Assembly: GCA_963665235.2 (NCBI GenBank)
Contig: CAXXLX010000001.1
Location: 1,534,902 to 1,598,901 of the forward strand
Direction of reading: 5' to 3'
Origin: Candidatus Poribacteria bacterium
GTDB lineage: Bacteria > Poribacteria > WGA-4E > WGA-3G
Length of the DNA: 64,000 nt
Each line of letters begins with the position of its first letter. Position 1 is the stretch's first letter. A model generated the notes under the pieces. That model was not told where the DNA came from, ran no database searches, and saw only the letters and a list, made by a program, of their open reading frames with translations. Positions 3,104 through 47,026 of the stretch are shown here, in pieces. A program made the translations under genes and the position numbers.

Positions 3104-3235
3104 CGTATAACGTGAGTTTGAAAAATTTTCCCCTCGTATGAGGAGCGGGAAACCGTTTGCCCGAATACTGGGCGATAAGTCGGCTTCTTAGGGACGATAT
3201 GTTTATAGGCATCTGGGTTTCTGCCCGCCTCTTAG
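3104..3235 (+). repeat. ~135-bp dispersed repeat (left, direct copy)
   Basis: Aligns by eye at roughly 85-90% with the reverse complement of 8395-8530. Partial relatives occur at 11735-11900, 13870-13975 and 61696-61800. Confidence 0.7.
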
Positions 3236-3472
3236 TGGTTCACTCGGTAAATTCTTATGTCTTATGAGTTTCCAGATAATAGCCGGGACGGACTACTGTG
3301 CTTGCGACGATGTCGTGTCCATATTACCATACAAACTTAGCGAGCAGACCACTTAGTGGTTCACTCGGTAAATTCTTATGTCTTATGAGTTTCCAGATAA
3401 TAGCCGGGACGGACTGCCGTGCTTGCGACGATGTCGTGTCCATATTACTATACAAACTTAGCGAGCAGACCA
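3231..3472 (+). repeat. tandem duplication, 121 bp x 2
   Basis: Units start at 3231 and 3352, with a third start at 3473. The two copies differ at only a few positions. Confidence 0.9.
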
Positions 3473-3789
3473 CTTAGTCCTGTAGGGACGATATATTTAT
3501 AGAAAACCGTTTCCGCCCCGATTCTTAGTCCCGTAGGGACGATATATAGTGAAACCTATAATTACTTTGACACTTTTGTAGAAGCACACTTTCTAGTTTG
3601 CGGACACGCCTGCACAAACCTTATTGTTTGCGCTACCAAAACCCAGTCCGGGGGTTCATAGCACACGTAGCGGGAACCGCAGGGGCTGGGGGCCCTAGGG
3701 GAAACACCCCAGCAAAAACACCCCTACAAACGGGTTGTGTGTGTGCCCTATCACAGCGTGCTCACATATTTTCAGAATTTACTATATTT

Positions 3790-5198
3790 ATACTAAAGTT
3801 TGGACAATATTCTAGATTTCAAGCAGCCTTGTCAAACGGCAGGGCGTTATCTTGCGTTTTCTCGGTCAGAATATTCTGCGAGTTTGTTTTATCTTCGGAA
3901 CTCGCAGAATATCGGCGGCACAAAATCTGTGCTTGAAGATAAGCAACCCGCAGCCCTTGTGTGAGTTTCTTCGGTTTATACCAATGAATGCCTAGTTTTT
4001 CGCAGACCTGCTCAACACTGATACGTTTTTCTGTCGTTTCCGGCATAGCAAAGATTAGCTTTGTTAGAGACGCTGCAACGAAACTCAGTTGTCCGAAGCG
4101 ATTGATGCTTTTGCGCGACTTGACCTGATACCCGCTGAAACCGAAGTGTTGCTTTGCGTCACGAAAGGCTGTCTCTATCTCCCATCTGCGGCGATAGTAT
4201 TCAACAATCTGTGGTATCTCAAGCGTCAAATCTGTCGTCCAGACACAGAAATACCGGTAAGGTTTTGACTGTCTCGTCTCGGTCTCGTTCGGATGACAAC
4301 TAGTCGGACATCTACCGGACACATTTTTGCACTATCTGTGATGCCACTTGATAGTCTTTGCCCATTAGGGAGACCACTTTATACCGCAAGCGCCGGATGT
4401 TTAGACGCGGTCCGTATTTCTTCGGACGCCCGGGGCTCCGACGCTTCGGGGCTTTAGGGCGGCGGTAAAACACCGCATTTGACTTCGCACGACACAAGAT
4501 ATGGTGTTTGAATGCCAAAACCGTCTCAAACACTTTGCGACGGGCGAACCCTCTATCAAAGATAATCAGTCCCGCAGGTATCTTTGATACGATACGCTTC
4601 AATACCGCATCCCCTTTGTCACGGACTGTCTTCGGAACAACCAGCCTGACCCACACAGGAAATAGTAAACATTGCGTCGCAGTCTCACACAATAAACCCA
4701 AAGCCGCAAACTCATGACCGAAGTGAAACTTAGATTGATTCACACGCCCCCTCTGATACTTGAAGTTGCGAAAAAAATGTAGACCATATTGACCCTTGCC
4801 GGTTTTCACAGCAGACGTGTGGTCATAAACATAAACCCAATTCGGAAATACCTGCTGTAGCTTTTCAACGAGCTTCACCGCAACAGCATCCGCACTCCAA
4901 ACACCCCGGGACAGAAACTTCGGTAAAGACCAATACTTCGTCCCGAAGACACTTGATTGATAAAGACCCGTCAGGGTGCCACCCTGGCTATTGGAAGCAA
5001 TAAAGCCAAAAATCATCGCTTGGAAAAGCGCAAAGTTTTGTGGGTTGAATAAACAACTAAAATGTGATAGAATATCTTGTAAGCAGAAAAGAAGGTTCAT
5101 TTTTATTTTCCTTTCGAAAATTTAATTTATTTTAAAATGATACCTACTTTTTTGCTTCTTGTCCATCTTAATTCTTAAAATTGTCCAAAGTTTAGTAT
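3790..5198 (-). mobile_element. IS4-superfamily insertion sequence (~1.4 kb) with terminal inverted repeats
   Basis: ATACTAAAGTTTGGACAATATT at 3790-3811 pairs with the reverse complement of 5177-5198 (ATACTAAACTTTGGACAATTTT). The repeats enclose the transposase frames. Confidence 0.75.
3819..5100 (-). pseudogene. DDE transposase (IS4/IS701-like), split into two frames
   Basis: ORFs 4312-5100 and 3819-4322 overlap by 11 nt in different frames around a CAAAAAT run. The second part has the Y-2-R-3-E-6-K signature (YYRRRWEIETAFRDAK). Confidence 0.65.
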
Positions 5199-5390
5199 TC
5201 GTTCAGAAAACGAGATAAATCAGTTTAATTCGGTATAAGCTAGGTTTACAGAACAAGTTTTTTATGAGTGTCAACGAAAAAAAGTTAACAAAACACAGAA
5301 ATGAACGGATATATAGAGAAAGATGTCCTGTGTGATGGACAACACCCAAAAAAGTTGACACCGCACACGTTTCTATAGGAGGATAGATTT

Positions 5391-6410
5391 ATGACAAAAA
5401 AAGTTTATGTAGGAATAGGTATCCTGATGCTTCTTGTCCTCGGAAGTGCCATTTTCCTCCTGAATCACAAGTTAGACACGGAACCTGAAGTTATCTATGA
5501 ACCGCCCTCAAAGGAGGTTTTAGAGAACCTACGAAAGCAAACCGAACGGGGAACTGCGGCGATAGAGCAACAGTCCGAAGTCAACGGACAGCGTCGCCCG
5601 GTTTCCGACACATCAAACCGTAGTACCGAAACAACAACCGCGGCAGAGAACAATGCCGGTGCCGCGGAAGCAATACCCGACGACTTGGCAGGTATCCCCC
5701 ACGTGCGGGGTTTTACCTCGACCAATCCGATGTTCGCGGAGGGTGTCCCTGAACACTTACAATGTCCCAAACAGTGGGTGGGACTTTACGATAGTGAGAC
5801 AGAAGACGACCTATCGGAGATTCAAGCCTACATGCTACCTATTATTTACGAGATTATGACAAAGTATAACCCCGAACGGCCACTGACAGAGGTCTGGCCT
5901 GCGTATATTGAAGCGGAACGCTTTTATTACGAGAATGCGGACCCAGAACTGGGAAACGCAAACGGTGCTAGCGGTAGATTTGATTGGGAATATCAACACT
6001 TGCTAGATTTCCCAGAGATAATGGTTCTTGCTGAAGAAGACCCGCACCGAATGTCAACCCTTCAGCGGGTATTGATAGGACGTTGGCCTGCCACTTTGAA
6101 CCAACATGAACTGCCGGATGGCAGAATATTCTACGCAGGACACGAAGCGAATTATGAGGTCTGGGAGAAACTCCCCGATGGTATGATGCACCCCGATGGT
6201 ATGATGCACCGGTCTGTCGGTTTTGGGCATTCGGACACGGGCCGCATCATCAAGATTTACCCTGACACGATGACAGATGAAGAACTGAAAGCGATCGGTG
6301 GATGGAATTATAATATTGACCCGTATTCAACAGGGTTTTATACACTCCCGCCTGATGCGACCCAGCGCCTCATAGAAAAGATAAAATCTTTTATCTCAAC
6401 GCCACATTAA
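5391..6410 (+). CDS. hypothetical membrane-anchored/secreted protein
   Basis: 339-aa ORF with AGGAGG before the ATG and an N-terminal hydrophobic helix. No family recognised. Contains an internal PDGMMHPDGMMH duplication. Confidence 0.55.
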   Translation: MTKKVYVGIGILMLLVLGSAIFLLNHKLDTEPEVIYEPPSKEVLENLRKQTERGTAAIEQQSEVNGQRRPVSDTSNRSTETTTAAENNAGAAEAIPDDLAGIPHVRGFTSTNPMFAEGVPEHLQCPKQWVGLYDSETEDDLSEIQAYMLPIIYEIMTKYNPERPLTEVWPAYIEAERFYYENADPELGNANGASGRFDWEYQHLLDFPEIMVLAEEDPHRMSTLQRVLIGRWPATLNQHELPDGRIFYAGHEANYEVWEKLPDGMMHPDGMMHRSVGFGHSDTGRIIKIYPDTMTDEELKAIGGWNYNIDPYSTGFYTLPPDATQRLIEKIKSFISTPH

Positions 6411-7365: not shown

Positions 7366-8289
7366 GTGCCTAAACCGCCCAATGCACGGAAGCGTGGTGT
7401 TGCCAAACTCAAAAAAGCGATGATACTCACACCGGAATTTGAGGCACTCTGGGAACGGATTAAGCACAAAACGCGATACAAAGTTGACATTGACACTGAA
7501 AAATTAATCGCTGAGGTCGTTGAGGCATTAGATGAAACCAACATCCAATTACCTAAAATAACGATTAGAAAGGGTATAGTGGTAATTGATGAAGAAAACG
7601 AGTTTAAGGTTCAACACACCGGAGACGGCAGCTTGGCATATCGCTTGTCGGGCCGTGCAAATGTTTTGAGGTTAATTGAGCATCGGCTGGCGCATACTAC
7701 CCCTACAATGAAATTGACGCGTCAGACCCTTTGGGAAATTCTCAATCGCACAAAAAATCAACAAGCAGTCTTAGACAATCCCCCTGAATTTTCTAAAGTT
7801 GTGGTGAAACACATCAGGAAGAAAATTATGCATCAACTGATTGATGGTGTAAAGTATGAGAAGATCGGTGAGGTGTATGAGATGCGTCAGTTCGATTGCA
7901 AGTTGGAAAGCTGGAAGGATTGCATGGTTCCCGCGTCGCGCTCCATCTACGATTACGTAATATGGGATTCGGAAGTTGAAAAGAGGTTCGTTGAAGGATT
8001 AGAAGAGCGAGACGACATTAAACTCTATCTGAAACTTCCTGCTTTTTTCACTGTGCCAACCCCTATAGGCAACTATAACCCGGATTGGGCGATAGTCAAA
8101 GAGGACAGAGATGCACATGGTGAACCGACCGGTAAAGAAAATCTCTATCTAGTTAGAGAGACCAAAAGCACAACTAATTCAGAAGACCTCCGAATCCGTG
8201 AACAACAGAAAATCAATTGTGGCGAGCGGCACTTTCGTGATGCTCTCTGCGTTGATTACGCGGTTGTTACCTCTCCTGAGGAAATCTAA
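7366..8289 (+). pseudogene. C-terminal fragment of a type III restriction enzyme Res subunit (endonuclease domain only)
   Basis: 307 aa. Contains LTPEFEALWERIKHKTRYKV and a PD-(D/E)XK-like NYNPDWAIV...LVRETKST. No helicase domain. The open frame begins just after W1. Confidence 0.5.
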
Positions 8290-8394
8290 TAGCTGCAGGA
8301 TGGACGCAGCGCGTTGATAATTCCTTATGATAAACGTGAGCTTGATAATAAATGTCCGTTTGCACTAACCTTTATAAAGATATCGTCCCTACGG

Positions 8395-8530
8395 GACTAA
8401 AAGGAGGATAGAAACCCAGATGCCTATAAAGATATCGTCCCTAAGGAGCGGGCTTATCGCCCAGTATTCAGGCAAACAGCCCGCTCCTCATACTAGGTGA
8501 AAACTTTTTTCAAGCTCACGTTAAGATACG
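8395..8530 (-). repeat. ~135-bp dispersed repeat (right, inverted copy)
   Basis: Reverse complement of the 3104-3235 copy. It overlaps the last 5 codons and the stop codon of the GH2 gene. Confidence 0.7.
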
Positions 8531-11380: not shown

Positions 11381-11481
11381 TGGGAAGGGTGGAAGGGTGG
11401 AAGATTGGAAGGATGGAAGAGGGTGGAAGGGTGGAAGGTGGAAGGGTGGAAGAGTGGAAAGATGGAAGGGTGGAAGAGTGG
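11381..11481 (+). repeat. GGAAGGGTGGAAG-type microsatellite-like word (W5)
   Basis: Degenerate GGAAG(G/A)(G/T)TGGAAG iterations. Related tracts at 16313-16355 (inverted), 30334-30370 and 31565-31600. Confidence 0.8.
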
Positions 11482-11910
11482 ATTTCGCTTGTGTTGTCTG
11501 AATCGCGGATGACACGGAGAACACGGATTTCGCGGAGTGTCCGATGCGTAACAATCCAAGTTTTGTGATTATAGTTTTAGCGTTTTTTTGTCTGAATGCA
11601 CGTCGCATTTGGGCGAGTACGCCACAAATCGCGGATTATCGCGGAGAACGCGGAAGACGCGGAGTTTAAGAAATGTCCGCCTATCTAGAAAGGTATCGCG
11701 TGCCCAGCACGCTCCTACATAACACGTTAAGTACAACGTGAGTTTGAAAAAAAGTTTCTTTAGTCCCAGTATTCGGGCAAACGGTTTCCCGCTCCTCAAG
11801 GACGATATCTTTATAGATAACCGTTTTCCCAACGCTTCTTAGTCCCATATTCGGGCAAACGGTTTCCCGCTCCTAGCACAAACGGACATTTATTATCAAG
11901 CTCGCGTTAA

Positions 11911-11960: not shown

Positions 11961-12005
11961 GGCTGCGATATTTTTTATGAAGAAAAATCAAACAGTTCGC
12001 AACTA

Positions 12006-12375
12006 ATACCATTTCTAATTGAAAATGTCTCTTGATTGTAGCATAAACTTCCAGTTTGTGCGCTTTATCGTAGCATAAACTTCCAGTTTGTGCTTTATTG
12101 TAGCATAAACTTCCAGTTTGTGCGCTTTATTGTAGCATAAACTTCCAGTTTGTGCGCTTTATCGTAGCATAAACTTTTAGTTTGTGCGCTTTATTGTAGC
12201 ATAAACTTTTAGTTTGTGCGCTTTATCGTAGCATAAACTTCCAGTTTGTGCGCTTTATCGTAGCATAAACTTCCAGTTTGTGCTTTATTGTAGCATAAAC
12301 TTCCAGTTTGGGTCCTCCGTTCTCCGTTTCATTTCTAACAACCGGTAATGATAGAATAATTAATAAAAATGGTAT
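12006..12375 (+). mobile_element. MITE-like element E1 with internal 32-bp VNTR (9 units)
   Basis: Ends are ATACCATTT...AAATGGTAT. A conserved 5' head (TTCTAATTGAAAATGTCTC) and a conserved ~75-bp tail flank the GTAGCATAAACTTCCAGTTTGTGC... units, which have periods of 32 or 30 bp. Confidence 0.6.
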
Positions 12376-12494
12376 AACATAACAGAGAACCAAAACATTT
12401 TTCGGAGGAAAGCGGCACGGTTTGCAACTCACCTGATTAGCCACCGATAGCGAAAGTGTGACATTTCATTTTTTTGAAATCGTCCAAGGTGGGT

Positions 12495-12995
12495 CAAAAC
12501 CGCTTACGAACATAGACGGGGCAGGCGTTCAGGAACATCCACCACCGAGAACCGAATGTCACACTTTGTGTCAAAAGTGTAACATTTACACCAGAACAGC
12601 ACACAAAAGTAGGCAGGAGTGATAACCGAAAACCGGCAGCCAAAATGGCACAACGCGTTTTTTTGTGTTGCGAAAAATATAGGGGTAAATCGCCTATAAA
12701 CATAGACGTGGCGTGGGTTTGTGCGAATACAGCACCGAGAACCAAATGTTACACTTTGTGTCAAAAGTGTAACATTTCCACCGGACCGCCTCAAAAAGTA
12801 GGAGGCAGCACGGTAAGAAAAGTCCGCAGAACTGATACCTGAAATCGGCGGTTGAAATGACACATTTTGTTTTTTTTGTGTTGCGAAAGCGAGAGTGCAA
12901 AACGGCTTACAAACATAGATAGGGCATGCGTTTGTGCACATGCAACACCGAAAACCAAATGTTACACTTTGTGTCAAAAGTGTAACTTATGCACC
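12495..12995 (+). repeat. degenerate tandem repeat, ~190-215 bp x 3, each with a 10-bp-stem hairpin
   Basis: Units start near 12495, 12683 and 12897. Each carries GTTACACTTTgtgtcaAAAGTGTAAC (one copy has GTCACACTTT). Confidence 0.7.
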
Positions 12996-13001
12996 GGTTT
13001 T

Positions 13002-13023
13002 GTACAAAAACTTTACACACCCC
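13002..13023 (-). repeat. word W1 (inverted copy) followed by AATCAGAC
   Basis: GTACAAAAACTTTACACACCC(C), then AATCAGAC at 13024-13031. Confidence 0.85.
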
Positions 13024-13096
13024 AATCAGACAAGACGATTGACATTTAAGCCAACACAGGGTAAAATAAACGTAACGTTATAAGGAGAACTCCTTC

Positions 13097-14633
13097 ATGA
13101 AAAACACTTTGTACTCCATTTTGACAGCACTGTTTGTAGCGGCAACATTTACGCCTATCAGCCTCGCCCAATATTCCCCGGGATGGGATTCCCCTGATGG
13201 CGCGAACGCGCGCATCAGAGGAGGTAAGCTCCGCATCTATGATGTAAAGTATTCACCGGATAGCACACGGGTCGCGGTGTCCGGTAGCTTCGGTGTCCGG
13301 CTCTACGATGTTCAGACAGGTGAAGAACAGGTTCAATTCATAGGGCACCGAGGTAAGAAGGTCTGGAGCGTGGCGTTTAGTCCAGATGGAAAAAGGCTTG
13401 TGAGCGGTGGACAGGATAATACCATTCGGTTGTGGGATGTGAACATAGGAAAACACATCCGAACAATCACAGAACGGGCCTGGAGCGTAGCATTTAGTCC
13501 AGATGGCACGACGATAGCAAGTGGGGATTGGATTCAGACCATTAGTCTATGGGATGTGAACACAGGGAAACGTCTATTTACACTCCCTGAAAATATAATA
13601 CCATTTTTATTAATTATTCTATCATTACCGGTTGTTAGCAATGAAACGGAGAACGGAAGACCCAAACTGGAAGTTTATGCTACGATAAAGGGCACAAACT
13701 GGAAGTTTATGCTACGATAAAGGGCACAAACTGGAAGTTTATGCTACGATAAAGGGCACAAAGAGGCACAATCTGGAAGTTTATGCTAACGAGTTGTGCT
13801 AAATGACTTTTTGTACAACATTATTTCACACAAGAACGTTTTGTCCGTGCTTCTCATTGGTTTGGACGCTCTTCAGTCCCAGTATTCGGGCAAGCAGCCC
13901 GCTCTTTAAGGACGATATCTTTATAGCTAAGCGTTCCACCTTTCTCTTTAGTCCCATAGGGACGATATGTTTGTATGACAACATCCAATATCTGTGAGAA
14001 AAACAAAAACAACCAGTTAACTGGCACAAGTCATTATGCTACAATAAAGAGGCACAATCTGGAAGATTATGCTACAATAAAGAGACATTTTCAATTAGAA
14101 ATGGTATAACTAAGCTCTGGAGCCTAGCGTTTAGCCCGGATGGAAGGATGCTTGCAAGTTGTGGCTTCGAGTACAATACCGGCAGTGGGGACAATACCAT
14201 TCAGTTGTGGGATGTGAAAACGGGAAAACACATCCGAACAATCAGAGAAGAGGCAGTTGGGAATGGCATCACAGACGTGGCGTTTAGTCCGGATGGAAAG
14301 ACTATAGCTAGTGCCAGCTCGTCTATCCTTCGGTTGTGGGATGTGAAAACAGGAAAACACATCCGGACATTTACAGAGGAGGCGGCTGGTGTCTGGAGCG
14401 TGGCGTTTAGTCCGGATGGAAAGACTATAGCTAGTGCCCATATCGGTGCTATCGGTCTGTGGGATGTGGAAACAGGAAAATTCCTACGAACAATCAGCGG
14501 ACAGGGTCATGTCGGAAGAGTGGTGGCGTTTAGTCCGGATGGAAAGACTATCGCAAGTGGGGGTTGGCGTGGGGCATATCTGTGGGATGCAAACACAGGA
14601 CAACGCCTCCGAACACTCATAAAGGATTATTGA
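13097..14633 (+). pseudogene. secreted WD40-repeat protein, interrupted by a ~510-bp MITE-like insertion
   Basis: The 5' part (13097-13597) has a signal peptide plus WD40 blades and runs into the element. The 3' part (from about 14109) resumes with KLWSLAFSPDG and more blades to the stop at 14633. Removing 508 or 511 bp restores one frame. Confidence 0.75.
13598..14107 (-). mobile_element. MITE-like element E3 (same family as E1/E2, inverted) carrying a nested ~240-bp repeat insertion
   Basis: Same termini, head and tail as E1 and E2. Its 32-bp units are GTAGCATAAACTTCCAGTTTGTGCCCTTTATC. A foreign block at about 13790-14030 is made of other dispersed words. Confidence 0.7.
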
Positions 14634-24277: not shown

Positions 24278-24299
24278 TACTAAACTTTGGACAATTTTA
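24278..24299 (+). repeat. solo terminal repeat of the IS at 3790-5198
   Basis: TACTAAACTTTGGACAATTTTA is identical over 22 nt to the reverse complement of the IS right end (5176-5197). No transposase is adjacent. Confidence 0.6.
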
Positions 24300-30509: not shown

Positions 30510-31020
30510 TGAGATGTTGTGATGCTAAGCAGGTTTTTGACCTGCGCCAGAGACCTCTTGCCCACGGTTTCCAACAGCCGCTTTGGCAAAGAGCAAAGAG
30601 GCGAACAACAAGATGTTGTGATGCTAAGCGATTTTTTGACCTGCGCCAGAGCCTTCTTGCCAACAGCCAATAGCCAACAGCCAATAGCCAATGACACATG
30701 TGCTTTCCCGTTTGAAGGGAATGTGAAATGGCGAATGGCGAATGGCGAATGGCAAATAGCAAGAAAACCCTCCTACCAAACAGGCGGGTGTTGTCCAAGT
30801 TCGCGATACTTTCGATTGGAATGATAGCAACGGGTAAAGTTTTACAACAAACCCTCTTGCCAATAGCCAATTGCTAACTGCTAATAGCCAATACCACTTG
30901 TGCTTTCCCGTTTGAAGGGAATGCGAAATCGCGAATGGCGATTAGCAAATAGCAAGAAAACCCCTGGGAAGTAGAGGCGTGCTGTAAAAGTTCGCGCTAT
31001 TTTCGCTTGGAAGGATAGGA
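30510..31020. repeat. cluster of family-P palindromic elements, including a ~195-bp tandem pair
   Basis: GATGTTGTGATGCTAAGC..TTTTTGACCTGCGCCAGAG occurs twice. Two units of CTCTTGCCAATAGCC...TGTGCTTTCCCGTTTGAAGGGAATG...GGCGAATGGC...AGCAAG follow. Confidence 0.7.
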
Positions 31021-31034
31021 GGGGTTATATTGTT

Positions 31035-31408
31035 ATACCATTTCTAATTGAAAATGTCTCTTTGTAGTAGCATAAACTTCCAGTTTGTGCACTTCTTCGT
31101 AGCATAAACTTCCAGTTTGTGCACTTCTTCGTAGCATAAACTTCCAGTTTGTGCACTTCTTCGTAGCATAAACTTCCAGTTTGTGCACTTCTTCGTAGCA
31201 TAAACTTCCAGTTTGTGCACTTCTTCGTAGCATAAACTTCCAGTTTGTGCACTTCTTCGTAGCATAAACTTCCAGTTTGTGCACTTCTTCGTAGCATAAA
31301 CTTCCAGTTTGTGCACTTCTTCGTAGCATAAACTTTTAGTTTGGGTCTTCCGTTCTCCGTTTCATTTCTAACAACCGGTAATGATAGAATAATTAATAAA
31401 AATGGTAT
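31035..31408 (+). mobile_element. MITE-like element E2 with nine 32-bp units (eight identical, the last variant)
   Basis: Same termini, head and tail as E1. Units of GTAGCATAAACTTCCAGTTTGTGCACTTCTTC start every 32 bp from 31067 to 31323. Confidence 0.65.
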
Positions 31409-31600
31409 TAGAACACCCCCTCTTGCCAATTTGCTAATTGCCAAGGAGATTGTTCCGCATCTTAAAATCCGCGAAATCCGTGTCCTTCGCGATAATCCCC
31501 GATTCAGACAACACACACTCGTGTCCTCCGCGCTAATCCGCGATTCAGCAATACACACGCCAAACCTACCCTTCCCCTCTTCCAGCCTTCCCTCTATCAT

Positions 31601-32000
31601 ATCGTGTAATGTATCGCGTGCACAGCACGCTCCTACAGAAATCGTGTAATGTATCGCGTGCACAGCACGCTCCTACAGAAATCGTGTAATGTATCGCGTG
31701 CACAGCACGCTCCTACAGAAATCGTGTAATGTATCGCGTGCACAGCACGCTCCTACAGAAATCGTGTAATGTATCGCGTGCACAGCACGCTCCTACAGAA
31801 ATCGTGTAATGTATCGCGTGCACAGCACGCTCCTACAGAAATCGTGTAATGTATCGCGTGCACAGCACGCTCCTACAGAAATCGTGTAATGTATCGCGTG
31901 CACAGCACGCTCCTACAGAAATCGTGTAATGTATCGCGTGCACAGCACGCTCCTACAGAAATCGTGTAATGTATCGCGTGCACAGCACGCTCCTACAGAA
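31601..32000 (+). repeat. perfect tandem array, 40 bp x 10
   Basis: ATCGTGTAATGTATCGCGTGCACAGCACGCTCCTACAGAA is repeated ten times without a mismatch. Each unit holds the W4 hairpin GCGTGCacaGCACGC. Confidence 0.95.
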
Positions 32001-39347: not shown

Positions 39348-41909
39348 TTATTTGCGTATTAACATCTTCCGAGTTGCGGAGAATTTTCCCGCTTCTAGGG
39401 TGTAAAAATAGACTCCACTCGCTACAGGCTCACCTGCTTCGTTTTTGCCATCCCAATACGCTGCACGATTCCGACTGTGATAAAGCCCCGCAGCCTGATT
39501 GCCTAAGACTAACTGCCGAACCAATGTCCCATCCGCAGTATGTATAGATATACGGACATCCGCGGAGTTTGCCAACTGATACGGTATCCACGTCTCCGGG
39601 TTGAACGGGTTCGGATAGTTCGGAAGCAGCCCAGTCTTTTTGGGTGTTAATATTGCGAAAAGTTGTTGTAGGAAATGAATACCGCGTTGTGCCGTTGGTT
39701 CGGTAAGTGGCAGCTGCTGTGCTTGTGCGAGCCACTGCTGCACCGCTTTTGCGGTAAGCGTAGGCGGTACCTTTTGATACACGGAGGGTGCTGCCGCTGC
39801 GTCGGCAAGTGCTGCTGCAACCTGGATAAGGTCTGCAATGTTGACAACGCCATCCCCGTTGACATCGGCAGGATTTGGACCTGTCTGTCCGAAGTTTGCA
39901 GCGACGATGACTAAATCGTGAACATCTACGACACCATCCCTGTTTACATCCGCTTCAAGTGGAATCAACTGTTCGGGTGGTATTTGTCCGGGGTTGATTA
40001 TGGAAGGCAAATCCCATAAAAGTATTGTCCCGTACCAATTACTAGTAGCGAAGGTTTTTCCATCCGGACTGAACACAAGGTCATCAATCCCATTTGGCAT
40101 GCCTCTTAGGATTGATTCACTTTCGCCACTTATTGCATCCCAAATTTGCACTGTTCCCTCGCTTCCAGCAGTTATGAGCGTCTGTCCATCTGGACTAAAC
40201 GCAAGCTCGATATAGCGATCGGTCTGCTCAATAGGGATTATCTTTCTGTCACTACTATTAATACTCCACAAATAGAGTTCTCTATTTTTCCATACAATAG
40301 CGAGGGTATTTCCATCCGGACTAAACGCAATATTACTGATTCTGCTTCTGTACGCGGGTGCATGGAATGTCGCTATGGCCTGTCTACTTTCAATATCCCA
40401 CAAACGTATTTCTGAATCGATGCCAATTGCAAGTTTCTGTCCATCCGGACTGAAAGTAACAGCTAAATAGCCTTCCTGACGTTCACCTTCAGAGATTGTC
40501 CATATAGGATTACCCGTAGCAACATCCCAAAAAATTGCCTTTTTAGTGGATGTTGCCAAAATGCGTCCATCTGGACTAAAGTTAACATTAGAACCAGAGG
40601 TTTTGTGTCCGAGAAGCGTTGCCTTCTGTGTGCCTGAGGCAGCATCCCATAACCTTACTGTGTGGTCAACGGCGAACCAGTAATAGCCAGAAATTGAGCC
40701 ACCACTACTAGCTATAGTCTGCCCATCTGAACTAAAGTCGACAGATACAGCAGGGGTTGGATGTCCCCGGAGGGTTCTTGTGTTTTTACTTGTTGTGGTA
40801 TCCCAGAGCCGCAGCGTTTTATCCTGCCCTGCGCTTACAATTGTCTGTCCAGTCGGACTGAAGGCGATATCAGAGAATCCGCTGGTATGTCCTGTTATTG
40901 TTATTTTTTGCTGTAGGCTCTCCGTATCCCATAAAATGATTGTGCTGTCGAAGCTACCGGTAGCGAGCAGAGTTCCCTCCGGATTAAAAGCAACACTTAC
41001 GACTTCGTCCGTATGTGCTATGAGGGTCGTTTTATAGCCGCTCGTAGCAACGTCCCATAGACACGTCGTGCCATCCTTGCTGCCACTTGCGAGGGTGCGG
41101 CTATCTGGACTGAAGTCGACACTTCTGAAACTATGCACGCGCCGTCTAAGGATAGTTTTACGTCTGCCGGTAGCGACATCCCACAGATGGGCTCGGCTTT
41201 CCAACCAACCTTCATGCCCTGCGAGAGTTTTTCCATCCGGACTGAAGGTAACATTCTCAGTACCCCAGCCAATCTCGTTGTCTGTTGTGAGAGTGGTTTT
41301 GAGTTCACCCGTGGCAACATCCCACAACTTTACCGTGTTCTCTTCATCATCCCCCCCGCTTGCAAGGGTTTTCCCATCTGGACTGAAGGCGATACTGCTA
41401 ATATCATCTCTATGTCCCATAAACGTGGTTTTCAGTGCTCCAGTCGCAACGTCCCAAAGCTTCACTGTTGGCTCTTCGTAGTCACCCGCAGTAGCGAGGG
41501 TTTTTCCATCCGGACTGAACGCGACATCTGATATTTCGTTCGAGTGTGCTGCCACTACGATTTTGCGTTCGCCTGTAGCAACGTCCCATATATAAAATTC
41601 TGCGCCACTGCTACTTGTGAGGGTTTTCCCATCTGGACTGAAGTCGACACTTGAAACATACCCTATATGATTGGTGAGCAGCTTGCGTTCTTTCCCTGTG
41701 CGTACATCGTAAAGCCAAACGCCTATAGAACTCGGCACAGCGAGCAGGGAAGTATATCGTGAAAAGATTATATTGCCAGAGATTCTTCCCTTCCCAAGGC
41801 GCATTTTGGCACCCGCGGGCAACCCCCATCGTTCGCTTGAAAAAGCAGGTGGTAAAAAGCATGTTGCTATAAGAAGTAGTGCTAAAATGGTAAATCGTAT
41901 CGTTTTCAT
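39348..41909 (-). CDS. WD40 array gene A1: signal peptide + 14 WD40 blades + dockerin-like module + T9SS-type CTD
   Basis: 853 aa. 14 WD-type blade endings (LWDV.TG and similar). DVNRDGVVDVHDL...DVNGDGVVNIADL. C-terminus LLPNYPNPFNPETWIPYQL...GVYFYTL. Confidence 0.85.
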   Translation of the reverse strand: MKTIRFTILALLLIATCFLPPAFSSERWGLPAGAKMRLGKGRISGNIIFSRYTSLLAVPSSIGVWLYDVRTGKERKLLTNHIGYVSSVDFSPDGKTLTSSSGAEFYIWDVATGERKIVVAAHSNEISDVAFSPDGKTLATAGDYEEPTVKLWDVATGALKTTFMGHRDDISSIAFSPDGKTLASGGDDEENTVKLWDVATGELKTTLTTDNEIGWGTENVTFSPDGKTLAGHEGWLESRAHLWDVATGRRKTILRRRVHSFRSVDFSPDSRTLASGSKDGTTCLWDVATSGYKTTLIAHTDEVVSVAFNPEGTLLATGSFDSTIILWDTESLQQKITITGHTSGFSDIAFSPTGQTIVSAGQDKTLRLWDTTTSKNTRTLRGHPTPAVSVDFSSDGQTIASSGGSISGYYWFAVDHTVRLWDAASGTQKATLLGHKTSGSNVNFSPDGRILATSTKKAIFWDVATGNPIWTISEGERQEGYLAVTFSPDGQKLAIGIDSEIRLWDIESRQAIATFHAPAYRSRISNIAFSPDGNTLAIVWKNRELYLWSINSSDRKIIPIEQTDRYIELAFSPDGQTLITAGSEGTVQIWDAISGESESILRGMPNGIDDLVFSPDGKTFATSNWYGTILLWDLPSIINPGQIPPEQLIPLEADVNRDGVVDVHDLVIVAANFGQTGPNPADVNGDGVVNIADLIQVAAALADAAAAPSVYQKVPPTLTAKAVQQWLAQAQQLPLTEPTAQRGIHFLQQLFAILTPKKTGLLPNYPNPFNPETWIPYQLANSADVRISIHTADGTLVRQLVLGNQAAGLYHSRNRAAYWDGKNEAGEPVASGVYFYTLEAGKFSATRKMLIRK

Positions 41910-41920
41910 AATCTCCTCTC

Positions 41921-44485
41921 CTATTTTCGTATTACCATTCGCCGTGTAGCTGTTACATCGTCTGCGGATAGTGTGTAGAAATACACCCCGCTTGCGACCG
42001 GTTCACCCCGTTCATTTTTTCCATCCCAATAGGCAGCACGGTTTTGATTTTGATAAATACCGGCAGGCTGATGCCCTAACTTTAGCACTCGAACCAAGTG
42101 CCCCGTGGCAGAATGGATTCGAAGTGTCACCTCGGCGGCGTTTGCCAACTGATAAGGTATCCACGTCTCCGGGTTGAACGGGTTCGGATAGTTCGGAAGC
42201 AGCACAGTCTTTTTGGGTGTTAATATTGCGAAAAGTTGTTGTAAGAAATGGATACCCCGTTGCTCCGTTGGCTCGGTAAGTGGAAGCTGCTGTGCTTGTG
42301 CAAGCCACTGCTGCAACGCTTTTGCGGTAAGCGTAGGCGGTACCTTTTGATACACAGATGGTGCTGCGGCTGCATCGGCAAGTGCTGCTGCAACCTGGAT
42401 AAGGTCTGCAATGTTGACAACGCCATCCCCGTTGACATCGGCAGGATTTGGACCTGTCTGTCCGAAGTTTGCAGCGACGATGACTAAATCGTACACGTCT
42501 TCGACACCATCCCTGTTTACATCCGCTTCAAGTGGAATCAACTGTTCGGGTGGCATTTGTCCGGGGTTGACTATGAAAGGAAAATCCCATAAAAGTATTG
42601 TCCCATCCCAACTACTAGTAGCGAAGGTTTTTCCATCCGGACTGAACACAAGACTATCAATCCCATTTGGCATGCCCATGAGGGTTGATTTACTTTCGCC
42701 ACTTATTGCATCCCAAATTTGCACCGTTCCGTCCCTTCCAGCAGTTATGAGTGTCTGCCCATCTGGACTAAACGCAAGCTCGATGTAGTAACTAGTCTGC
42801 TCAATAGGGATTATTTTTCTGTCGCTACTATTAATACTCCACAAATAGAGTTCTCTGTTTTTCCATACAATAGCAATGGTATTTCCATCCGGACTAAACG
42901 CAATATTGCTGATTCTGCTTCTGTACGCGGGTGCATGGAATGTCGCTATGGCCTGTCTACTTTCAATATCCCACAAACGTATTTCTGAATCGATGCCAAT
43001 TGCAAGTTTCTGCCAATCCGGACTGAAAGTAACAGTTAAATAGCCTTGCCTACGTTCATCTTCAGGGATTGTCCATATAAGATTACCGGTAGCAACGTCC
43101 CAAAAAATTACCTTTCTAGTGGACTTAGCCAAAATTCGTCCATCTGGACTAAAGGTAACATTACCACCAGAGGTTTTGTCTCCGAAAAGCGTTGCCTTAT
43201 GTTTGCCCGAGGCAGCGTCCCATAACCTTACTGTGTGGTCAACGGCGAACCAGCCAGTGCCAGAAATCAAGGTGCCACTACTGGCTATAGTGTGTCCATC
43301 TGAACTAAAGTCTACAGACCCAACAGGCGTTGGATGTCCCCGGAGGGTTCTTGTGTTTTTACCTGTTGTAGTATCCCAGAGCCGCAGCGTTTTATCCTGC
43401 CCTGCGCTTACAATTGTCTGTCCAGTCGGACTGAAGGCGATATCAGAGAATCCGCTGGTATGTCCTGTTATTGTTATTTTTTGCTGTAGGCTCTCTGTAT
43501 CCCATAAAATGATTGTGCTGTCCCAGCTTGCGGTAGCCAGCGTAGTTCCATCCGGACTGAACGCCACACTTGCGATTGCATCCGTATGCGCTATGAGGGC
43601 CGTTTTATAGCTGCCCGTAGCAACGTCCCATAGACACACCGTGCCATCCATGCTGCTACTTGCGAGGGTGCGGCTATCTGGACTGAAGTCGACACTTGTG
43701 GTCCCACCCATGTGCCCTATAAGGGGAGCTTTAGGTGTGCCGGTAGCAACATCCCATAGAAACAATTGCTTTCCCCACCAACCTTCACACGCTGCGAGGG
43801 TTTTCCCATCCGGACTGAAGGCAATATTCCTGACACCCCGGAGGCCGAACTCATCCTTTGTTGTAAGAGTGGCTTTGAGTTCCTCCGTGGCAACATCCCA
43901 CAATTCTATCGTATTTTCTTCATCATAACCCCCGCTCGCGAGGGTTTTCCCATCCGGACTGAAGGCGATACTCCTAATATCATCTGTATGTCCCCTAAAC
44001 GTGGTCTTCAGTGCTCCCGTGGCAACGTCCCAAAGCTTCACTGTTGGCCCCTCGTAGTCACCCGCAGTCGCGAGGATTTTCCCATCCGGACTGAAGGCAA
44101 CATCTGAGATTTCATTCGAGTGTGCTGCCACTACGATTTTGCGTTCACCTGTAGCAACGTCCCATATATAAAATTCTGATCCACTGCTACTTGCGAGGGT
44201 TTTCCCATCCGGACTGAAGTCGACACTTGAAACATATCCTGTATGATTGGTGAGCAGATTGCGCTCTTTCCCCGTGCGTGCATCGTAAAGCCAAACCCCT
44301 ATAGAACTTGGCACAGCGAGCAGGGAAGTATATCGTGAAAAGATTATATTCTCATAGACTATTCCCTTCCCAAGGCGCATTTTGGCACCCGGGGGCAAAC
44401 CCCATCGTTCGCTTGAAAAGGCTGGTGGTAAAAAGCATGTTGCTATAAAAAGTAATGTTAAAATAGTAAATCGCACCGTTTTCAT
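41921..44485 (-). CDS. WD40 array gene A2 (type A body, B-type CTD)
   Basis: 854 aa with the same architecture. Its stop is 11 nt before the A1 start codon (spacer GAGAGGAGATT). Confidence 0.85.
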   Translation of the reverse strand: MKTVRFTILTLLFIATCFLPPAFSSERWGLPPGAKMRLGKGIVYENIIFSRYTSLLAVPSSIGVWLYDARTGKERNLLTNHTGYVSSVDFSPDGKTLASSSGSEFYIWDVATGERKIVVAAHSNEISDVAFSPDGKILATAGDYEGPTVKLWDVATGALKTTFRGHTDDIRSIAFSPDGKTLASGGYDEENTIELWDVATEELKATLTTKDEFGLRGVRNIAFSPDGKTLAACEGWWGKQLFLWDVATGTPKAPLIGHMGGTTSVDFSPDSRTLASSSMDGTVCLWDVATGSYKTALIAHTDAIASVAFSPDGTTLATASWDSTIILWDTESLQQKITITGHTSGFSDIAFSPTGQTIVSAGQDKTLRLWDTTTGKNTRTLRGHPTPVGSVDFSSDGHTIASSGTLISGTGWFAVDHTVRLWDAASGKHKATLFGDKTSGGNVTFSPDGRILAKSTRKVIFWDVATGNLIWTIPEDERRQGYLTVTFSPDWQKLAIGIDSEIRLWDIESRQAIATFHAPAYRSRISNIAFSPDGNTIAIVWKNRELYLWSINSSDRKIIPIEQTSYYIELAFSPDGQTLITAGRDGTVQIWDAISGESKSTLMGMPNGIDSLVFSPDGKTFATSSWDGTILLWDFPFIVNPGQMPPEQLIPLEADVNRDGVEDVYDLVIVAANFGQTGPNPADVNGDGVVNIADLIQVAAALADAAAAPSVYQKVPPTLTAKALQQWLAQAQQLPLTEPTEQRGIHFLQQLFAILTPKKTVLLPNYPNPFNPETWIPYQLANAAEVTLRIHSATGHLVRVLKLGHQPAGIYQNQNRAAYWDGKNERGEPVASGVYFYTLSADDVTATRRMVIRK

Positions 44486-44495
44486 CCTATACCTC

Positions 44496-47015
44496 CTATT
44501 TTCGTATTACCATTCGCCGTGTAGCTGTTACATCGTCTGCGGAGAGTGTGTAGAAATACACCCCGCTAGCGACCGGTTCACCGCGCTCATTTTTTCCATC
44601 CCAATAGGCGGCACGGCTTTGATGTTGATAAATACCGGCAGGCTGATGCCCTAACTTTAGCACTCGAACCAAGTGCCCCGTGGCAGAATAGATTCGAAGT
44701 GTCACCTCGGCGGAGTTTGCTAACTGATAAGGTATCCACGTCTCCGGGTTGAACGGGTTCGGGTAGTTGGGGAGCAGCACAGTCTTTTCAGGAATTAATA
44801 CAGTCAAAAGTTGCTCAAGCCTTGCAATTCCTTTCTGTAAAGTAGGGGTGTTGCTGCTAACTTGCCGCGCTTGGCTTAACCAATCTCGCACCTCCGCAGC
44901 GGTAAGCAGGTCTATAGGGTGTGAACGGCTTGAGGGTGCGCTGCTTCCGTTTTCGAGTGCAGCGGCAACTAATAAAATATCCTCTATGTTGACGATGCCA
45001 TCTGCGTTCACATCGGCATCACTTTCCTGTTCAGACTGCCCGAGTTGGGAGGCTACAAAGATTAGATCTTGAAGGTCTACGACACCATCACGATTCACAT
45101 CCTCAGCGTGTTGGACAGGGGCAACGGGACCGTCTGAAAAAGTGGTGGCATCCCACAAAAGCACCGTCCCATCCGAACTTCCACTTGCAAGCGTTTTTCC
45201 ATCCGGACTAAAGACGATATTGCGAACACTATACCTATGCCCTGTGCGGGTAAGTTTCAGGTCGCCAGTCGCAACATCCCAAAATCGCAGTGAGGTGTCG
45301 TCATAGCCTGCCCCGCTACTAACGAGCGTTCTACCATCAATACTGAAGTCGAGACTATTTATCCCATCGGTATATCCTGTATGGATAACACGCGATTCAT
45401 CGGTGGCAACATTCCATAGAATAATCGTATTGTCCTTACTACCACTTGCAACTATGCTAGCATCCGGATTAAATGCAACGTCATATACACGGTCTGTATG
45501 CCCAGTGAAAAGCCCTATCTGGTTGCCAGACGCAAAATCCCACAAACGGACTGTCCTATCGTGACTTCCACTCACAAGGATACGGCTATCCTGACTGAGG
45601 TCAATTGAAGTAACCCCTGCCGTATGTCCAGTAAATGCCGCTACCTGGGTGCGCCCCAAACGCCATATATGCACTGCTGTACTGGTATCGCTCGCCCCCG
45701 CGAGAAATTGACCATCTGGACTGAAGACAACCTCGCTAAATCCCCAACTCTCGGTTAACCTGTCTCCACCATACCCTTCGAGTGCTGCAATGTACGTGCC
45801 ACGGCTCACATCCCAAAGAAATACCACTGAATATGAATAACAAGCGAGGGTGTTTCCATCCGGACTGAAAGCTAAGCTACGATTAAATGACCAATCCCTC
45901 AAATATATGCCTGTTTTGTATTCGGCTGTAGCAGGGGCCCATAGATGGATTTCTTCCCTACCTCCAGTAGCAAGTGTTTTTCCATCCGGGCTGAAGGCGA
46001 TTGCTGCAACTCCGATCGTATGACCCGAAATAGACAGCTTGCGTGTACGGCTTTTAACGTCCCACAGAAATAACCCGCTTCCGCCACCGCTTGCGAGAGT
46101 AGTGCCATCCGGGCTGAAAGCGATACCGCTAACTCCCCAGGGATGCCCGCTAAGTTCGGCTATATGCGTCCCATCAGCAGCGTTCCAAAGATGCAAATCT
46201 CCCCTACCGCCAGCAATCGTGTTGCCATCCGGACTGAGCGCAATGCGATATATATTTGAACCTGTCCTGAATTTTTGCTGTTTCCTAGTCTCAATATCCC
46301 ATAGGTTGATAGTGTTCCCGTCCACAGCTATAAGTTTGCTACTATCCTGGCTGAAAAGTAGACGATCATATCCGCGCGCGTACTCGGATAAAGTGGTTTT
46401 GTGTGTAGCCGTCGCAACATCCCACAAGCGTAACGTGTTATCGTAACTCCGACTCGCAAGTGTGGTGCCATCAGGACTAAATGCAATTGCGTCCACAGAT
46501 TTAGTATGGCCGGTGAACGTAGCTCTTTGCTCGCCAGTGGTAAGTGACCAAAGCTGAATCTCTTCTCCGACACCGTAGGCAAACATCTTACTATCTGCAC
46601 TAAAGGTGCTCCTATCTGCCCAGAAGACGACCCTACGAATATCCTCCGCATCCGCTTTTAGTGTTGCTTTCACGCTGTTAGTTGTGAGGTCGCGCACCCG
46701 CACTATATCGTCCGCGTCCAAACTAACATACGTCTGAGCATCCGGGCTCACCCCGATAAAAGTTGACGGACCTAATGCGATAAAATCCAATTCCACACCC
46801 GTGTGTGTATCATAAATCCATAAACCTATAGAACTTTGAACAATCAGCCGGTTGCCATCATGGGAAAACATTAAATTCCCTACAGACCCCTTACCAAGTC
46901 GTGCTACTGCCCCTTCAGGTAAATCCCACCGTGTATAATCTTCCGCAAAAACGTTTGCTAGAAAAAGAGGGAAAACCAATAGTAATGCTAAAATCGACAG
47001 TTTTATATTTTTCAT
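44496..47015 (-). CDS. WD40 array gene B1
   Basis: 839 aa. Type-B N-terminus (AEDYTRWDLPEGA). Same propeller, dockerin-like and CTD order. 10-nt spacer to A2. Confidence 0.85.
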   Translation of the reverse strand: MKNIKLSILALLLVFPLFLANVFAEDYTRWDLPEGAVARLGKGSVGNLMFSHDGNRLIVQSSIGLWIYDTHTGVELDFIALGPSTFIGVSPDAQTYVSLDADDIVRVRDLTTNSVKATLKADAEDIRRVVFWADRSTFSADSKMFAYGVGEEIQLWSLTTGEQRATFTGHTKSVDAIAFSPDGTTLASRSYDNTLRLWDVATATHKTTLSEYARGYDRLLFSQDSSKLIAVDGNTINLWDIETRKQQKFRTGSNIYRIALSPDGNTIAGGRGDLHLWNAADGTHIAELSGHPWGVSGIAFSPDGTTLASGGGSGLFLWDVKSRTRKLSISGHTIGVAAIAFSPDGKTLATGGREEIHLWAPATAEYKTGIYLRDWSFNRSLAFSPDGNTLACYSYSVVFLWDVSRGTYIAALEGYGGDRLTESWGFSEVVFSPDGQFLAGASDTSTAVHIWRLGRTQVAAFTGHTAGVTSIDLSQDSRILVSGSHDRTVRLWDFASGNQIGLFTGHTDRVYDVAFNPDASIVASGSKDNTIILWNVATDESRVIHTGYTDGINSLDFSIDGRTLVSSGAGYDDTSLRFWDVATGDLKLTRTGHRYSVRNIVFSPDGKTLASGSSDGTVLLWDATTFSDGPVAPVQHAEDVNRDGVVDLQDLIFVASQLGQSEQESDADVNADGIVNIEDILLVAAALENGSSAPSSRSHPIDLLTAAEVRDWLSQARQVSSNTPTLQKGIARLEQLLTVLIPEKTVLLPNYPNPFNPETWIPYQLANSAEVTLRIYSATGHLVRVLKLGHQPAGIYQHQSRAAYWDGKNERGEPVASGVYFYTLSADDVTATRRMVIRK

Positions 47016-47026
47016 AAGTGCCTCTC

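Follow-up and report, generated by a model that had tools for sequence, protein, structure and literature searches.

How does half a kilobase of non-coding DNA come to lie in the middle of a WD40 gene? The question is raised by a 64,000-nucleotide stretch of a Candidatus Poribacteria genome (the window), in which a WD40 open reading frame (ORF) starting at 13097 runs into a repetitive element and is taken up again directly after it. Very probably, the segment at 13599-14106 is a transposable element of the miniature inverted-repeat kind (MITE), a non-autonomous cut-and-paste DNA transposon that inserted in the gene.

The 5' part of the gene (13097-13598, plus strand) encodes a signal-peptide-like N-terminus and the first blades, and extends through the left copy of a TAA target. 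As the sequence stands, the ORF at 13097-13720 (207 aa) reads ...NTGKRLFTLPENI, then enters the element, which adds 40 residues and stop codons, so that translation would end at 13720. The 3' part (14107-14633, plus strand) resumes the WD40 reading from 14110 as TKLWSLAFSPDGRMLASCG... and stays open to 14633, with its stop codon at 14631-14633. Removal of 511 bp (the element plus one TAA) brings the two parts in frame as an uninterrupted WD40 ORF of 341 aa; removal of 508 bp also keeps the frame, and removal of 510 bp does not join the halves. This bears out the original prediction, which had described the interruption, the resumption and the in-frame joining by deletion of 508 or 511 bp. It had placed the element at 13598-14107. 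The element is real and the letters quoted for it are correct (ATACCATTT begins at 13598 and AAATGGTAT finishes at 14107); its exact extent is 13599-14106, 508 bp, with ends TACCATTT (13599) and AAATGGTA (14106). The target-site duplication, then thought to be AT or TA, is instead the 3-bp TAA found at 13596-13598 and 14107-14109 by sequence reading and the excision test. A 2-bp TA duplication with CCATTT ends needs a 506-bp removal, which by simple arithmetic breaks the frame, and the gene copy thus supports a 3-bp duplication.

Inside these limits the element is ordered on the minus strand. Its tail (13599-13659), in which the terminal inverted repeat TACCATTTTTA occupies 13599-13609, is 95% complementary to 12283-12380. 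Next to it, at 13660-13789, lie four 32-nt units, each made of a 24-nt module (GTAGCATAAACTTCCAGTTTGTGC) and an 8-nt linker, the last unit being cut by a nested insertion at 13790-14033; a tandem repeat finder gives 3.1 perfect units over 13663-13762. Two degenerate units follow the nested block, where alignment and module matches assign to 14034-14075 the rest of the interrupted unit and one degenerate unit with a compensatory stem variant, GTAGCATAATCTTCCAGATTGTGC. The head (14076-14106), delimited by inverted-repeat pairing with the other copies, contains the terminal inverted repeat TACCATTTCTA at 14096-14106 on the minus strand. The two terminal repeats, TACCATTTCTA and TACCATTTTTA, match at 10 of 11 positions in all three copies of the element in the window, and the longest ORF inside the gene copy is 67 aa. 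The array is not of the CRISPR type: its units abut through a constant 8-nt linker and there are no unique spacers.

The other two copies are intergenic and lie on the plus strand. One spans 12007-12374 (368 bp, 8.9 units) between TAA duplications at 12004-12006 and 12375-12377, the other 31036-31407 (372 bp, 8.7 units) between TTA duplications at 31033-31035 and 31408-31410; read on the same strand, the duplication in the gene is TAA. Both align with the reverse complement of the gene copy, which is thus inverted relative to them. All three have in common a head of 31 nt (TACCATTTCTAATTGAAAATGTCTC...), serial 32-nt units and a tail (...CCGTTCTCCGTTTCATTTCTAACAACCGGTAATGATAGAATAATTAATAAAAATGGTA), and heads and tails differ at 1-3 positions (97-99% identity); the original prediction had already noticed the common termini, head and tail. 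The eleven-mer TACCATTTYTA is exact at the six ends of the three elements; with up to one mismatch it has 10 matches, against 2.4 expected. The arrays are regular (unit matches of 93% at 12007-12374 and 99% at 31036-31407), and their linkers are specific to each copy: GCTTTATC/T in the first, CCTTTATC in the gene and ACTTCTTC in the last. Homogenisation or expansion of the individual arrays must therefore postdate the separation of the copies. In structure the elements qualify as MITEs on every point: they are short, have no ORF above 67 aa, carry inverted ends, show target duplications in three of three window copies and are multicopy. That the family was recently mobile is likewise supported, by the near-identity of the three heads and tails together with the open frame of both gene halves. 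Simple arrays also adjoin the MITE copies (31601-32000, 11383-11482 and 30659-30757): a perfect 10 x 40-nt array stands beside the copy at 31036-31407, and the same group includes 12 x GGAAGGGT and heptamer runs of GCCAATA and AATGGCG. Repeat comparison within the window shows the genome to be extremely repeat-rich.

The nested block had been noticed as about 240 bp of dispersed words, and it is a separate, independent insertion from another dispersed repeat family, to judge from its sequence. It interrupts one repeat unit and sits between two copies of the 8-nt direct repeat TTATGCTA (13782-13789 and 14034-14041). Its centre matches window repeats at 11757-11825, 8373-8454 and 3480-3545, and a related genome has two tandem elements that correspond to its left end and middle (L002 5130-5545; relatives at 5150-5530). 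Because this insertion fell inside the array at a later time, the gene copy of the MITE does not seem to be brand new, though both gene halves are still open. The window also holds a dispersed repeat family (...GGAGCGGGAAACCGTTTGCCCGAATACTGGG... / ...GGGACGATAT...) at 3155-3236, 8396-8477, 11740-11895 and 13870-13975. Two of its copies, 82 nt long and inverted (3155-3236 and 8396-8477), bracket about 5.2 kb with an insertion sequence (IS) and a restriction-endonuclease-like gene (7366-8289).

What did the gene look like before? In a protein search the reconstructed 341-aa product matches a 342-aa protein, P0001, over its full length with 89% identity and zero gaps across the junction (RLFTLPENITKLWSLAF vs RLLTLPGHTIKLWSLAF). 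Four other homologues, P0002 (69% identical) and P0022, P0027 and P0124 (53-55%), are equally uninterrupted at the junction position, with no inserted segment. In all of these the canonical WD40 'GH' takes the place of 'EN' in the interrupted copy. Together they provide a paralogous empty site for the insertion, and the predicted empty-site sequence is ...CCTGAAAATATAACTAAGCTC... The outcomes that would have spoken against an insertion, namely the segment being translated in orthologues or the halves being independent genes, are not what these proteins show. A publicly annotated 207-aa protein, P0008, has exactly the sequence of the truncated window ORF, including the 167 residues encoded ahead of the element, and its contig is as long as that of P0001 (4,364,704 bp). 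Most likely, therefore, the window comes from this 4.36-Mb assembly and P0001 is an intact paralogue elsewhere in it. The gene of P0001 lies outside the window, in which tblastn finds nothing better than the two WD40 halves themselves. A promoter-like site (TTGACA, 17 nt, TAAAAT) at 13039-13067 precedes the WD40 start, so the truncated 5' half may be expressed. We infer that the split gene is non-functional and that its role is covered by the intact paralogue. Just upstream, 12440-13050 holds a direct repeat of about 200 bp in three diverged copies, each with the palindrome TGTNACACTTTGTGTCAAAAGTGTAAC (at 12557, 12747 and 12960), which has no other match in the window. WD40-like genes are also found at 39348-54674, as six head-to-tail paralogues of about 2.55 kb each (839-854 aa), some neighbours being up to 95-100% identical over 300-nt stretches; their sequences point to recent tandem duplication or gene conversion.

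The element has relatives well beyond this locus. We scanned the window and 94 related loci for ends paired within 560 bp and obtained 35 elements, 3 in the window and 32 in Poribacteria loci, which have common 10-nt ends and T-N-A flanks; 4 of the 35 pairings are probably false. The relatives' ends lie within 1 mismatch and several are exact. The canonical element is about 112 bp long, TACCATTTCT..(~20 nt)..GTAGCATAAACTTCCAGTTTGTGC..(~45 nt)..AGAAATGGTA, and has a single 24-nt module; its head and tail are recognisably homologous to those of the window element (e.g. L011 1852-1962 and L026 338-449). Shells with TACCATTTCT ends can also hold other GTAG hairpins (e.g. L015 5565 and L016 6393). 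The 3-nt flanks are identical in 20 of the 35 elements (13 TAA, 5 TTA and 2 TCA). Excision restores a long ORF (348 codons) for the gene copy in the window and for none of the other 34. A literature search returned nothing on MITEs in Poribacteria.

The core of the element is the module in its array. The 24 nt of GTAGCATAAACTTCCAGTTTGTGC consist of GTA, a 9-bp stem and a 3-nt loop, and the 21-nt palindromic core (GCAYAAACTTCCAGTTTGTGC) occurs in at least 90 stretches, which come from at least 23 Candidatus Poribacteria species-representative genomes and two other contigs, with 0 matches in viral contigs. As single-stranded DNA (ssDNA) the module has a folding energy of -5.5 kcal/mol (z = -3.5); its complement is the poorer folder, since A-C there replaces a G-T pair. 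The GTA prefix, which lay outside the search pattern, is present in about 97% of 177 module instances. Among 53 distinct variants, 22 compensatory cells are seen against 5.3 +/- 1.9 in shuffles, and 0 of 500 shuffles reach 22; the double changes turn pair 6-22 from A-T to G-C and pair 10-18 from A-T to T-A, C-G or G-C. The loop sequence is variable (TCC, TTT, GTT, GCC...), so that conservation falls on the stem. On the GTAG strand a T-rich linker follows the hairpin and a simple scanner scores it as terminator-like; given a stem of just 3 G-C pairs, we take this as a hint of terminator function and not as evidence for it. The two other contigs with the exact 21-nt module are binned as Desulfobacterales (L085 and L089), which could be mis-binning or horizontal transfer.

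The module is not bound to one kind of transposon. In fact, it also lies inside two further inverted-repeat families with different ends: Family B, bounded by TTATAGTGAAGCC...GGTTTTACTATAA, and Family C, whose ends start TATAGTAGACTTTAGAATTAA and which holds an inverted module doublet like the REPIN form of repetitive extragenic palindromes (REPs). Together with its linker it was also amplified in tandem independently, with periods of 34 nt (L009), 30 nt (L034) and 29 nt (L084). Since it is found in three differently ended families, the module behaves as cargo. A bolder proposal, which we consider doubtful though worth stating, is that the 24-nt GTAG hairpin, carried by at least three unrelated inverted-end families and repeatedly amplified in place with units of 29, 30, 32 or 34 nt, is itself a functional module (a site to which a protein binds, or a signal formed by structured DNA or RNA). 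Such a REP/MITE hybrid could arise if REPs hitch-hike in shells mobilised by DDE transposases, or if the arrays are built by an HUH enzyme yet to be found. In L002, from a distant relative (WD40 homologue P0124, about 54% identical), diverged arrays of the hairpin unit in both orientations (5820-6010) lie upstream of a WD40-WD40-TPR-WD40 cluster that resembles the WD40 / TPR-WD40 arrangement of the window. At L039 6633-7076 module doublets flank an ORF, considered as a REPtron gene and rejected, that has no Pfam match and looks like a small secreted protein.

Which enzyme moves these elements? Inverted ends and a 3-bp TWA/TNA duplication favour a DDE transposase acting in trans, and from the duplication pattern we would tentatively suggest one of the IS5 / PIF-Harbinger type. 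The partner search covered TACCATTTCT ends paired over distances of up to 4 kb, as well as ORFs (180 aa or longer) lying immediately inside solitary ends. The only long end pair, L046 6117-7557 with 55-bp inverted ends, encodes no transposase and just a 101-aa coiled-coil ORF. At 3791-5197 the window itself harbours an IS whose ends are TACTAAAGTTTGGACAAT; its DDE_Tnp_1/DDE_5 transposase is frameshifted (ORFs 3819-4322 and 4312-5100). Another Poribacteria genome (L015 724-2126) has an intact 425-aa relative with a TAAA duplication. The ends of this IS differ from those of the MITE, and we rejected it as the partner; a solo end of its type stands at 24278-24295.

A different class of enzyme is widespread in these bacteria, namely Y1 transposases resembling REP-associated tyrosine transposases (RAYTs), with 193 protein clusters in Poribacteria. 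A phmmer search with Y1 transposase queries recovered two Y1 genes, both confirmed by Pfam, whose flanks carry other repeats. Read by eye, the RAYT loci have other GTAGG-type REPs, upstream of the gene in L086 and on both sides in L093 and L094. The module was found near no RAYT gene in a partial sample of 22 loci (these three and 19 metagenome loci, L095-L113), and a recognisable GTAG hairpin, again of another GTAGG type, lies beside only some of the 19; among them, L095-L097 are REPtrons of the classical kind, bracketed by GTAGGTTCGGTTTCCTAACCGAACC. At the RAYT gene of L093, the enzyme's own REP is arrayed in tandem as six units of 45 nt, and this array begins immediately behind a TTATACCATTTTTA end of the MITE family. 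Poribacteria REPtrons consist of single 157-aa RAYT-like Y1 genes with lineage-specific GTAGG-type REPs, sometimes in tandem arrays (L086 7120-7958, L093 2610-3560, L094 2800-3620 and L095-L097; REPs GTAGGTTCGGTTTCCTAACCGAACC, GTAGGAGCGAGCTGTGCTCGCGAT and GTAGGAGGGCTTTGTAAGCCCGA).

Could the element then be a REP/REPIN-type repeat, spread through ssDNA by a RAYT (an HUH enzyme of the Y1 type), with the array as a RAYT product? The repeat unit is in fact a hairpin with a GTAG tag, like the members of the GTAG REP superfamily (PMC3733652), REPIN-like inverted module doublets exist (L039, L040 and L006), RAYT-like genes are common in the phylum, and the array of L093 stands just before its RAYT gene and abuts a MITE end. 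Yet the three RAYT loci read by eye carry other GTAGG-type REPs and the 19 scanned ones have no copy of the module, the window elements have inverted ends and 3-bp duplications, which are not products of Y1 transposition, and the module occurs inside three families with different ends. We therefore hold this explanation to be unlikely. An old fission of the gene into independent halves, or junctions produced by repeat-caused misassembly, is in our judgement very improbable. It is true that the 207-aa product is annotated as a protein, that a 161-aa ORF could begin with the ATG at 14148 and that the genome is extremely rich in repeats. However, neither fission nor misassembly accords with a precise 3-bp duplication and an exactly restored frame, with the gapless alignment to an 89%-identical paralogue, or with four other continuous homologues; the 3' half has no signal peptide of its own and no plus-strand promoter-like site except a weak one inside the element, and the same truncated product appears in an independent public record.

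The exact restoration of the frame would also be expected if the segment were an intron (group I or II) taken out of the RNA, or if it left the DNA by a programmed and reversible excision, the gene then being functional or phase-variable. To this we give hardly any credence: the segment has no Rfam match at the gathering threshold (with E <= 1 there are only weak microRNA-like hairpin matches), identical elements sit in intergenic DNA, and the element holds a further nested insertion. Nor does any recombinase or transposase gene adjoin it, the sole transposase among the scanned window ORFs being the frameshifted one at 3819-5100.

Several observations do count against a simple MITE insertion. 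No empty allele of the exact site was seen, the comparison being with a paralogue and more distant homologues. Flanks are always T-N-A, yet the middle base is mismatched in a third of the good pairs (11 of 31 combine a TAA with a TTA), which a simple 3-bp duplication would not lead one to expect, and when A/T alone is considered the rate of flank matches is no better than chance. One possibility is that recombination between inverted copies caused inversions, turning TAA/TAA into TAA/TTA; a true 3-bp duplication is supported by the two TCA/TCA pairs and by the frame argument for the gene copy. The 25-nt end of the tail has 0 matches in the genome and metagenome contig collections, so the exact subfamily is lineage-specific. 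As to the mobiliser, the window and the 94 related loci (about 0.85 Mb) contain no autonomous TACCATTTCT-ended element, only MITEs beside ordinary genes, and no IS5-superfamily transposase gene with matching ends; the transposase partner looked for on the strength of the original prediction is thus missing from this sample. In addition, the MITE ends are unlike the IS5-family ends quoted in PMC4596501.

Taking the segment as a MITE, we read its history as follows. An element of a multi-genome Poribacteria family, with TACCATTTCT(A) ends, T-N-A flanks and a canonical length of about 112 bp, inserted at a TAA in the WD40 gene and duplicated those 3 bp, thereby splitting the gene into a truncated ORF of 207 aa and a 3' remnant without start signals of its own. 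Movement would have been driven by a DDE transposase supplied in trans. The arrays of hairpin and 8-nt linker, about 5 to 9 tandem 32-nt units in this genome, would have grown after insertion by slippage or unequal exchange. A second repeat element later entered the array in the gene.

BrickBuilt already provides MITEs that enclose a minisatellite (PMC4596501), and the window element is a member of this known kind, its insertion an ordinary kind of event. Like BrickBuilt and MITE464/PgRS of Porphyromonas gingivalis (PMC4596501), it is non-coding and built of a leader, spacer-less tandem repeats and a tail; with BrickBuilt it also shares short inverted ends and a repeat number that varies between copies. 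The likeness is one of architecture alone. The tandem unit is 23 or 41 nt in BrickBuilt/MITE464 and 32 nt here, and the BrickBuilt ends (GAGACCTTCGCA, IS5-like) and 23-nt unit are unrelated to the TACCATTTCT ends and the unit of the window element. BrickBuilt occurs only between genes and shows no consistent target duplication, whereas the window elements have clean 3-bp duplications in three of three cases and one copy is intragenic. Unlike that of BrickBuilt, moreover, the repeat unit is a GTAG-tagged hairpin common to many species of the candidate phylum.

In other respects the family recalls the Tourist-like MITEs and the PIF/Harbinger and bacterial IS5 superfamilies (PMC4482050, PMC2213677), with a 3-bp TWA duplication (TAA or TTA), a hallmark of PIF/Harbinger (PMC4482050), targets rich in AT, and non-autonomous copies of miniature size that end in short inverted repeats. 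It departs from them in ends that match no known IS5 ends, in its orphan state as regards a matching-ended transposase, in some TCA flanks and in the third of pairs that differ in the middle base. With GTAG REPs and REPINs (PMC3733652, PMC3116915) the module shares an imperfect palindrome of about 20 nt behind a GTAG tag, a high extragenic copy number and an occurrence as singlets, inverted doublets and head-to-tail groups, and REPtrons do exist in Poribacteria; the module differs in that it flanks no sampled RAYT gene and travels in inverted-end elements with target duplications. Rickettsia palindromic elements (PMC3733652) are likewise small palindromic repeats found inside protein-coding genes, but those are in frame and translated, whereas the window element brings stop codons and splits its gene.

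The insertion itself is modest, a textbook disruption by a MITE of one member of a large paralogous gene family. Nevertheless, it is direct evidence of movement of this repeat family in an uncultivated candidate phylum of sponge symbionts, and the mobility of such MITEs helps explain why the genome is so crowded with intergenic repeats. The family signature, TACCATTTCT ends with T-N-A flanks, offers a means of masking repeats and spotting split genes in Poribacteria assemblies. The part most worth following up is the module, with a sequence that hardly varies across many species, its covarying stem, its several transposon shells and its expansion into arrays. Should it be a REP-like functional unit with MITEs as its carriers, two classes of small bacterial repeats that are as a rule treated apart would be connected.

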